A stretch of 50,384 bases of DNA from a virus (lineage: Duplodnaviria; Heunggongvirae; Uroviricota; Caudoviricetes), in the IMG/VR virus record IMGVR_UViG_2880412407_000006; one strand, given 5' to 3'. Position 1 is the stretch's first letter. Each line of letters begins with the position of its first letter. Made by a program: the position numbers. Positions 33,001 through 36,000 of the stretch are shown in pieces.

Positions 33001-36000
33001 GGTAAAAATCAATGTCTGATCTGTTTACGCGAATGTGTTGCCGGATGGACGGGGCGACCGTTCGGGTGATGGGCAAACAGGCGGAGATTAACGGCGTCGT
33101 GTATGACGTGATGCCGGAGGAAGAGTCCGCGGAGATGGGGGCGCTTTCGGGCAGCCAGTTGTCACTGGTGGTGTTTTCAGCCCGGTACCGTCCGGCCCGT
33201 CATGATGTTGTTGTGTTTGCGGGGCGCACACTGACGGTGACCCGTTATGACACGTACAACGGTAAACCCCGGATTTTTGTCGAACAGGAATGAGTATGGC
33301 AATAAAAGGTCTGGCGCAGGCCATGAAAAATCTGGATGCAATTGACCGCCGTGCCGTTCCCCGGGCTGCCGCCACGACACTTAACCGTGTGGCGGAGTCC
33401 ATCATCGCGAAAACGGCCTCTTCGGTTGCCAGGGAGCTGGCGGTTCCGCGCCGTCTCATCCGTGAGCGTATCCGCCTGCAACGGGCCAGCGCAGACAGGG
33501 TTTATGCGAAGGTCATCATCAACACCGGTAATCTGCCCGCCATAAAACTGGGGACGGCCAGCGTGCGGCTTTCCCGCAGAAAGCGACGAAAGAAAGGCGA
33601 GCGTTCGGTCACGAAAGGGGGCGGCAGTGTGCTGATTGTGGGGAAAAGACGGATCCCGGACGCCTTTATCACCCGGCTGGCTAACGGACGCTGGCATGTG
33701 ATGCAGCGTATGCCGTGGGCACCATCGTCCACCGGTGCTGACAGCAAAGGGAGGCCGAAACGCCACCGTCTGCCGACTGAAGTGGTGAAAATTCCGACTG
33801 CCGGACCGCTGGCAGAAACCTTTGAACGTGAACGGGACCGGATGTACCGGGAAAAATTACCGGCGCAGATGATGAAAGCCATGACGCATCAGTTACGCCT
33901 GGTGCTGAAAAGAAAATGACAGGGAGGGTGTATGAAACACCGTGAAATACGGACGGCAGTTCTGTCTGCCCTGAAAGACAATATTTCTGAGCGGGTGAGC
34001 TGGTTTGACGGTCGCCCGGTTTTTATTGATGAACAGGAACTGCCTGCTGTTGCTGTTTACCTGACAGATGCGTCTGCTGCTGACGAGTTCGTTGATGAGG
34101 GAACCTGGGAGGCGACACTGCATATTGAGGTTTTTCTCAGGGCAAAAGAACCGGACTCGGCACTGGATATGTGGATGGAAGAAAAAATTCTTCCTGCGCT
34201 GGAGGCAGTTCCCGGGCTCAGTGCATTACTGCTGAAGATGAATCTTCAGGGGTATGACTACCGCCGGGATGATGAGTTTATGATGTGGGGATCGGCAGAT
34301 CTCCTGTGGAAAATTACCTACGAGATGTGAGGACGATATGGCAACACCAAATCCCCTTGAGCCGGTAAAAGGTGCCGGTACCACTCTGTGGGTTTACAAC
34401 GGCAAGGGTGATGCTTATGCAAACCCGTTGTCAGACGATGACTGGCAGCGACTGGCTAAGGTGAAGGATCTGACGCCGGGCGAGATGACGGCAGAACCCT
34501 ACGATGATAACTACCTGGATGATGAAGACGCGGACTGGACCGCGACCGGGCAGGGGCAGAAGTCTGCAGGAGATACCAGTTTTACGCTGGCCTGGAAACC
34601 GGGAGAAGAAGGTCAGAAAGGGCTTATAGGCTGGTTTGAAAGCGGGGATGTGCGGGCCTATAAAATCCGTTTCCCAAATGGCACGGTGGATGTGTTCCGT
34701 GGCTGGGTCAGCAGTATCGGTAAGGCCGTGACGGCGAAAGAAGTGATCACCCGCACGGTGAAAGTGACCAACGTGGGCAAACCTTCTGTAGCGGAAGAAC
34801 GCAGCAAAATTACGCCGGTCACTGCGATTAAGGTGACGCCGACATCCGGTACGGTGGCAAAAGGGAAAACAACCACCCTGACGGTTTCTTTTGAGCCGGA
34901 AAGTGCAACCGACAAGACGTTCAGAGCGGTTTCCGCCGATCCGTCGAAAGCCACCATTAGTGTGAAAGATATGACAATTACGGTAAACGGCGTGGCGACA
35001 GGTAAGGTGCAGATCCCTGTGGTGAGCGGAAATGGTCAGTTCGCCGCAGTGGCTGAAGTCACCGTTACTGAAGCGGGCGCTGCAGGGTAAACGGAGGTAA
35101 TACATGTTTCTGAAAACAGAACAATTTGAATATAACGGTGTGTCCGTCACGCTTTCCGAATTGTCTGCGCTGCAGCGGTTTGATTATATAAAGTTTGTTT
35201 CAGACGCAGAACAACAGGAGACAACGAAGCATGATGTCGTGCACATTAACCAGCGATATCTGGAAACGGCATCCCTGCTTGTGGCGATGTCGCTATGGCA
35301 TTCCCATTCCCTCAAAGGCACTCTGGCCTCTCCGGAGACAGAGATGCAGCAGATCCGCCGTGAAGTGATGCTGGGATGGCCTGCTGATGCACTGAATCAG
35401 GCAACGAACCGGGTGCTTTATCTTTCAGGTATGCTGGATAACCGGCACGATGCCGATCCTGAACAAACCGGGAAAGCAGAAGCGACTGAGCCGGTAACAT
35501 CAAAAAAGCATTCGAAGGCGAGCTGAACTTTGTCCTGAAACTGGCGCGTGAGATGGGGAGACCCGACTGGCGCGCCATGCTGGCCGGGATGACATCCACC
35601 GAATATGCCGACTGGCGACGTTTTTACTGCACGCATTATTTTCAGGATACCCAACTGGACGCTCATTTTTCCGGGCTGATGTACGCCGTACTCAGCCTGT
35701 TTTTTGGCGATCCGGATATGCATCCGGCGGATTTCAGTCTGCTTGCTCCAGCGTGTGAGGAAGAGCAGACGGAGATGCCGGACGAGGAAGAAATGCTGAT
35801 GCAGAAAGCGACAGGAGTTGCCGGAGGCGTCCGGTTCGGAGGGGACGGAGGGCGCGATATTTCACCTTCTGCGGATGTGGTGGATGTCAGCGAGGATGAT
35901 GTTGCATTAATGATGGCTTCAGCGGGGATTTCCGGAGGTGTGAGATATGTCCCAGCCAGCGGGTGATCTGGTTATTGATTTGAGTCTGGATGCGGCCCGG

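Follow-up and report, generated by a model that had tools for sequence, protein, structure and literature searches.

An A AAA AAG heptamer as the probable −1 frameshift site of a lambda-type G/GT tail chaperone locus

The G-T locus and its neighbours

In a stretch of DNA of 50,384 nucleotides (nt) from a tailed virus (IMG/VR virus record IMGVR_UViG_2880412407_000006; this whole stretch, at its full length, is called the window below), two overlapping open reading frames (ORFs) lie between the genes for the major tail tube protein and the tape measure protein. The first, G, encodes a tail assembly chaperone, and the second, here called the T frame, encodes a domain found in the T part of the GT fusion protein of phage lambda. 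Our subject is the short overlap between these ORFs, and a candidate site within it at which some of the ribosomes translating G would move into the T frame. ORF and Pfam predictions give the gene order V-G-T-H, the canonical lambda arrangement, and the last 20 nt of T are shared with the start of the tape measure gene (Table 1).

The G protein of the window belongs to Pfam family PF06894. If G and the T frame are joined into the predicted fusion of 287 amino acids (aa), Pfam recognizes Phage_TAC_2 in residues 1-123 (4.3e-34) and Phage_tail_T in residues 164-236 (3.3e-11), and the overall identity of this GT to lambda GT is 56%. Judged from its sequence, the phage is a long-tailed Stx1a-converting lambdoid phage; the identity of its G-T stretch is 99.7% to the Stx1a-converting phage Stx1_9793, 94.5% to VT1-Sakai and about 94% to CP-1639.

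Table 1. Features of the G-T locus and of the genes on either side, in window coordinates
Feature	Coordinates	Strand	Basis
Major tail tube gene, lambda V homolog (5′ neighbour)	34338..35090	+	Pfam Phage_TTP_12 (1e-68) and Big_2
G, tail assembly chaperone (zero-frame product 140 aa, ATG start)	35104..35526	+	ORF; Pfam Phage_TAC_2 (4e-34)
Out-of-phase lambda-like GGGAAAG, phased GGG AAA G	35470..35476	+	Phase computation
Last T-frame stop, TGA (5′ limit of the possible shift interval)	35487..35489	+	Frame computation
Slippery heptamer A AAA AAG (P-site AAA, A-site AAG; predicted −1 site)	35502..35508	+	Only in-phase X XXY YYZ in G
T-frame coding part of GT (first new-frame codon GCA at 35508)	35508..35966	+	Translation; Pfam Phage_tail_T; conservation
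Predicted two-tier RNA structure (outer stem 35517-35523/35579-35585, inner GC-rich hairpin 35542-35577)	35517..35585	+	Folding
ATG taken as start of a separate T gene by RefSeq/GenBank (probably an internal Met of GT)	35553..35555	+	Annotation; comparison
Tape measure gene, lambda H homolog (3′ neighbour)	35947..38559	+	Pfam TMP_2 and Tape_meas_lam_C

Anatomy of the predicted shift site

The T frame is −1 relative to G. Because the T frame is closed by its last stop on the 5′ side, and G ends at the TGA at 35524-35526, any shift that joins the two is confined to the 37 nt between 35490 and 35526. Within these 12 codons there is one in-phase heptamer of the form X XXY YYZ, namely AAAAAAG, which is phased as TC[A AAA AAG] in the G frame, and there is no second such heptamer and no second A AAG tetramer. 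Indeed, AAAAAAG is the only in-phase heptamer of this form across the entire G ORF, and not merely within the overlap. It ends 15 nt (five codons) before the G stop, and a −1 slip at this position predicts a GT whose junction reads ...EPVTSKK/AFEGELNFVLKLAREMGRPDW (...VTSKK-AFEGELNF...). A first-pass annotation of the sequence had claimed the position of the T-frame stop, the uniqueness of the heptamer between the two stops and a junction of ...TSKK/AFEGELNF..., and our frame computation and translation agree with it on all of these; its estimate that the heptamer lies about 18 nt before the G stop is replaced by the 15 nt given above.

A heptamer of this kind is unlikely to be present in the overlap by chance. 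The + strand of the 50-kb window contains 10 copies of AAAAAAG, and there are 10 in-phase start positions in the permissive interval, so about 0.002 occurrences would be expected by chance. The coding sequence of E. coli as a whole strongly avoids in-phase A_AAA_AAG (z = −10.1; Sharma et al. 2014, PMC4066793 Table S3).

The window also contains a copy of the lambda-like heptamer GGGAAAG, 26 nt 5′ of AAAAAAG. We considered this copy as the true slip site and rejected it, since it is in the wrong phase and the T-frame stop comes after it, which makes it unusable for a −1 shift. The T-frame stop that separates the two heptamers is missing in five IMG/VR loci (the L058 group), and in these AAAAAAG is still the sole in-phase heptamer.

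Conservation of the site among related loci

For comparison we used 337 related loci, drawn from IMG/VR, from a genome of E. albertii and from 15 named phages, with junctions placed by tblastn. (E. albertii contributes a single locus, obtained from a scan of genome contigs, and it carries GGGAAAG.) T is in the −1 frame in 329 of the 337 loci, and each of these 329 has one slippery heptamer, in the overlap and at the homologous position: GGAAAAG in 164 loci, GGGAAAG in 92 and AAAAAAG in 73. The last number comprises every recovered locus of the window subtype (73/73). GGAAAAG is carried by phi80, LLS, mEp237, mEp213, cdtI, Fels-1 and a Providencia phage, GGGAAAG by lambda, Turner, PhiR5_1 and many Stx2a phages, and AAAAAAG by the phage of the window, VT1-Sakai and CP-1639.

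The final four bases of the heptamer, A AAG, are invariant in the 329 loci, and variation is limited to the first three positions. No tetramer is more prone to shifting in E. coli than A_AAG (PMC4066793). The heptamer ends at the same distance from the G stop in the lambda, phi80 and window groups, whose sequences align column for column, with the codons GCG GGA AAG in lambda, GCG GAA AAG in phi80 and TCA AAA AAG in the window. The GenBank records of phi80 and LLS annotate GGAAAAG as a −1 slip site, with a joined G-T coding sequence. The three heptamers can be placed on a path of single-base changes, from GGGAAAG to GGAAAAG to GAAAAAG to AAAAAAG, that retains A_AAG at every step, although the intermediate GAAAAAG was found in none of the loci compared. 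The locus thus illustrates how a recoding site can drift with its function kept, as the heptamer takes the forms GGGAAAG, GGAAAAG and AAAAAAG around a constant A-site A AAG.

Seven loci (L046, L098, L099, L188 and L258-L260) seem to have T in frame with G or shifted to +1. We considered them as natural fusions or as users of some other mechanism, and rejected this because their G carries indels away from the site or, in the case of L046, has lost the site by deletion. On their sequences, these seven are defective or mis-assembled copies and not alternative mechanisms. In L046 (IMGVR_UViG_2869970738_000006, about 1880-1900), a 31-nt deletion takes out both the heptamer and the G stop and places T at +1, so this prophage copy cannot make GT. 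For one further locus of the 337, L254, the G part was not recovered. Another locus, L077 (1896-2014), is a mosaic in which a GGGAAAG heptamer and a PhiR5_1-type G tail are joined to a window-type T. This arrangement indicates that the heptamer travels with the G tail, and that recombination joints fall at or near the shift site.

Onset of coding constraint in the T frame

The pattern of substitutions around the heptamer bears on where translation of the T frame begins. The 45 nt of G that lie 5′ of the heptamer are hypervariable, with 99 extra base states over 45 columns, and this variability drops sharply at the heptamer. Of the 13 substitution states in the 18-nt overlap, 8 fall on T-frame third positions. 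Since T-frame third positions are G-frame second positions, the frame under purifying selection in the overlap is the T frame. Likewise, the T-frame peptide is conserved from its first post-shift codon in all groups (AFEGELNFVLKLAREMGRPDW, VFDGELSFALKLAREMGRPDW, ALASELKFVLNLAREFGRPDW and VLTREMQFVMRLAREFRRADW), and the part that precedes the annotated T start (AFEGELNFVLKLARE) is conserved between groups back to the heptamer.

The codon at the annotated T start reads Phe (TTC or TTT) in 164 of 164 GGAAAAG-type loci, and is ATG in the AAAAAAG and GGGAAAG groups. The sole Shine-Dalgarno-like triplet upstream of this ATG in the window, GAG, abuts it with no spacer, and the ATG falls within a stable predicted hairpin. 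Judged by this comparison of sequences, the T part lacks a conserved initiation codon of its own, and T-frame coding constraint starts at the shift site.

Proposed mechanism and alternative explanations

We are confident that the locus represents a lambda-type G/GT chaperone recoding signal in which A AAA AAG takes the place of lambda's G GGA AAG, a replacement that the first-pass annotation had proposed and that is now backed by homology, synteny and comparative evidence. From the anatomy, homology and conservation observed here, we infer a slip of the following kind. Most ribosomes would end at the G stop and so produce the 140-aa chaperone. A small fraction, with AAA (35503-35505) at the P site and AAG (35506-35508) at the A site, would slip one base back; the two tRNA-Lys molecules would re-pair on AAA AAA, and reading would resume in the T frame at GCA 35508, which would yield the 287-aa GT. 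By analogy with lambda, the G part would bind the tape measure protein, the T part would recruit the tail tube protein, and the ratio of G to GT would be set by the shift frequency, which is probably a few per cent, as it is in lambda. The predicted junction peptide spanning the shift site is TSKKAFEGELNF.

Several observations weigh against this interpretation. In RefSeq, ATG 35553 is the start of a 137-aa "phage tail assembly protein T" (35553-35966; likewise 1354-1767 in locus L001), and the 287-aa GT fusion has no entry among the roughly 15 billion proteins of a large collection. A search of the literature found no published GT protein, junction peptide or reporter data for this phage. In addition, the bare heptamer shifts at about 0.3% in a reporter (PMC4066793), so that a frequency of a few per cent in the native context would need a context effect or a stimulator.

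The annotation in RefSeq and GenBank amounts to a distinct explanation, in which T is a separate gene with its own start at ATG 35553 and frameshifting is unneeded. The exact 137-aa protein is found on about 990 contigs, and its ATG is common to two of the three heptamer groups. However, the conservation of the T-frame peptide from the heptamer onward, with its bias of substitutions to third positions, the Phe codon at the position of the ATG, the lack of a spaced Shine-Dalgarno sequence and the predicted hairpin make independent initiation of T very unlikely. Moreover, lambda T sequences occur solely as GT (PMC5009743). Taken together, we regard a separate T gene as highly improbable.

The two other explanations that we weighed appear slightly less probable still. 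GT could arise by transcriptional slippage of RNA polymerase on the run of six A's, such that an A is gained or lost in some mRNAs. Homopolymeric A runs can cause slippage of this type, and poly-A motifs have been cited for both mechanisms (PMC3711429), but the bacterial cases on record use longer runs, generally of >7 A's and of 9 in Thermus dnaX (PMC3711429). The sister heptamers GGGAAAG and GGAAAAG have just 3-4 A's, yet they preserve the phase-locked A AAG without variation, which fits re-pairing of tRNAs. The short run in the window and this pattern in its sisters make transcriptional slippage very hard to credit. Alternatively, since the permissive interval is 12 codons long, ribosomes might shift elsewhere within the 37-nt overlap, for example by slippage of a single tRNA at another codon, or this copy might make no GT at all, given that defective relatives such as L046 exist. 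The interval, however, offers no further in-phase X XXY YYZ heptamer or A AAG tetramer; G, the heptamer and the T frame are all intact in the window copy, and a 47-mer identical to the one around its heptamer is present in 601 E. coli genome records. We thus see almost no likelihood of either variant, and favour tandem slippage of tRNA-Lys on A AAA AAG.

Efficiency of the heptamer and a possible RNA stimulator

The efficiencies of all 64 heptamers were measured in E. coli by Sharma et al. 2014 (PMC4066793 Table S3), which allows the window and lambda heptamers to be compared directly. AAAAAAG shifts at 0.29% with no stimulator, at 4.3% with the IS911 stimulators and at 39% with the IS3 pseudoknot, and the corresponding values for GGGAAAG are 0.28%, 3.8% and 43%. 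Because these values are nearly equal, replacing GGGAAAG by AAAAAAG should have no functional consequence, and such neutrality would explain why the two heptamers coexist among relatives that are mosaic in other respects. At the G GGA AAG of lambda, about 4% of ribosomes slip, so that G and GT are made at a ratio of about 30:1; this ratio is important for assembly of the tail and is affected by the modification of tRNA-Lys (mnm5s2UUU) (PMC5009743, PMC3296357).

Two types of RNA element that could raise the shift frequency were considered. Upstream, no Shine-Dalgarno-like 4-mer (GGAG, GAGG, AGGA or GGGG) is present in the 17 nt 5′ of the heptamer (35485-35501, ACTGAGCCGGTAACATC); both phage chaperone clusters of Sharma 2014 were also scored without a Shine-Dalgarno sequence (PMC4066793). 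Downstream, folding predicts the two-tier structure listed in Table 1, whose outer stem begins 8 nt 3′ of the heptamer and whose minimum free energy (MFE) has a z-score of −2.7. The lambda, phi80 and window groups provide 62 distinct sequences, in which 98.9% of cells are paired in this structure, versus about 30-39% in slid controls.

Despite this, we do not accept the downstream structure as a proven stimulator. Most of the predicted pairs never vary, and the one compensatory pair, which is GC in 30 sequences and AU in 31, corresponds to a single lineage split. At synonymous sites, the stems are not clearly more constrained than the loops, and the structure is broken in the distant cdtI, Fels-1 and Providencia groups, which keep only 12-13 of its 19 pairs. 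The hairpin of the lambda cluster was rated no better than background by Sharma et al. (PMC4066793), and Rfam has no curated element at the shift site or the predicted structure. A downstream stimulator at 35517-35585, as modelled by folding, is possible but unproven; the predicted structure may be a stimulator that has gone unrecognised, or it may simply follow from conservation of the LAREMGRPDWRAM coding sequence.

A further possibility, which we consider speculative and rather unlikely, combines two proposals: that the G-T loci of lambda, phi80 and Stx phages share this region as an RNA stimulator that raises shifting from about 0.3% to about 4%, and that the G:GT ratio produced by AAAAAAG is more sensitive than that of lambda to thiolation of host tRNA-Lys (Tus/MnmA). 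The greater sensitivity might be expected because, with AAAAAAG, the P-site and A-site positions that slip both rely on the one tRNA-Lys of E. coli.

Distribution, annotation and significance

Of 5426 complete E. coli genomes, 643 contain the 47-mer around the heptamer; the copies number 1441 in total, with as many as five in one genome. The exact G protein is found on about 970 contigs, where it is named "phage tail assembly chaperone G". None of the RefSeq/GenBank records of the AAAAAAG subtype that we inspected annotates a GT fusion, and T stands alone in them. A full-text literature search found no description of a lambda-family G with AAAAAAG in Stx phages, although Xu et al. 2004 may list one. 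The combination of a lambda-family G with AAAAAAG differs from the one on record (ECs1801, with a Phage_TAC_1 chaperone; see below).

We therefore describe the feature as a genuine member of the class of lambda G-T frameshift sites, conserved and very common yet left unannotated, and as an unremarkable one within that class. Its main value lies in the annotation of Stx and other lambdoid prophages, as pipelines that search only for the lambda GGGAAAG would miss the AAAAAAG site. The understanding of frameshifting or of tail assembly is unchanged by it.

Other features of the window

A second programmed −1 frameshift signal, unrelated to that of G-T, is present elsewhere in the window. An IS629-like insertion sequence of the IS3 family occupies 1242-2455 on the − strand, with orfA at 2455..2129 (108 aa) and orfB at 2132..1242 (296 aa), and Rfam identifies an ALIL frameshift pseudoknot in it at 2058-2174. 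Several prophage-borne small RNAs reach Rfam gathering scores at 2870-3048, 15103-15273, 19506-19704 and 20625-20880; the families are RalA, sok, isrK, C4 antisense with a1/b1 targets, STnc100 and AgvB (anti-GcvB). A partial tRNA-like Rfam match lies at 20479-20538 (37 bits, model positions 7-64 of 71), and ARAGORN predicts no tRNA anywhere in the window.

Comparison with known systems

The programmed −1 frameshift of lambda G and G-T is reportedly the work of Levin, Hendrix and Casjens in 1993 and of Xu, Hendrix and Duda in 2004, 2013 and 2014 (as cited in PMC5009743). The window shares with lambda the gene order V-G-T-H, the Phage_TAC_2 and Phage_tail_T domains, the homologous codon pair at 15 nt before the G stop and the A-site AAG that slips (in the window, by prediction) to AAA. 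The post-shift peptides are also nearly the same (VFDGELSFALKLAREMGRPDW in lambda and AFEGELNFVLKLAREMGRPDW in the window). The two sites differ in the P site, where lambda has GGA (Gly) after a G and the window has AAA (Lys) after an A, so that both slipping tRNAs in the window would be tRNA-Lys, and the junction dipeptide is Gly-Lys in lambda but Lys-Lys in the window. Furthermore, the lambda site is experimentally defined, whereas that of the window is known from its sequence.

Sites of the phi80, LLS and mEp237 type (GenBank FN582354, PQ299149) agree with the window in chaperone family, position and the invariant A AAG. Their GGAAAAG is one substitution away from GGGAAAG and lies on the single-step path to AAAAAAG. 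On the other hand, GGAAAAG is an imperfect X XXY YYZ, in which re-pairing in the P site takes a G:U pair. These phages also have Phe at the annotated T ATG, and their GT is about 39-43% identical to that of the window.

A case with the same heptamer is ECs1801, from prophage Sp9 of E. coli O157 Sakai, which is likewise a prophage tail chaperone with A AAA AAG, followed by a −1-frame Phage_tail_T domain. ECs1801 is cluster A_AAA_AAG_25 of Sharma et al. 2014, for which −1 frameshifting "can be safely inferred" (PMC4066793 Table S4). We rejected the idea that the window site belongs to this cluster, because the chaperone families differ (Phage_TAC_1, PF06222, in ECs1801 and PF06894 in the window). 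BLASTP detects no similarity between ECs1801 and the window G (E = 1.2), and the ECs1801 heptamer, unlike that of the window, abuts its stop (AAA AAG TAG).

The first-pass annotation had also pointed to a likeness with the dnaX site of E. coli. This holds for the heptamer, which is identical and in phase, but not for the rest of the signal. In dnaX, a Shine-Dalgarno-like stimulator on the 5′ side of the heptamer and a nearby stem-loop on its 3′ side accompany a shift of about 50% that leads to a shorter product, and slippage is driven by tRNA-Lys (mnm5s2UUU), which pairs poorly with AAG (PMC3711429, PMC5009743). The window, in contrast, has no Shine-Dalgarno-like 4-mer within 17 nt upstream, a downstream structure that is predicted by folding, an expected shift of a few per cent and a product that would be longer rather than shorter. 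Further afield, AAAAAAG has been proposed as a G-T-like slip site in Paenibacillus phages (PMC6003738), and related heptamers occur in archaeal viruses (PMC5009743). Frameshifting at G-T, and the fact that it is widespread in tailed phages, are textbook knowledge (PMC5009743), and the A AAA AAG site of the window very probably takes its place among these systems as a close relative of the lambda site.

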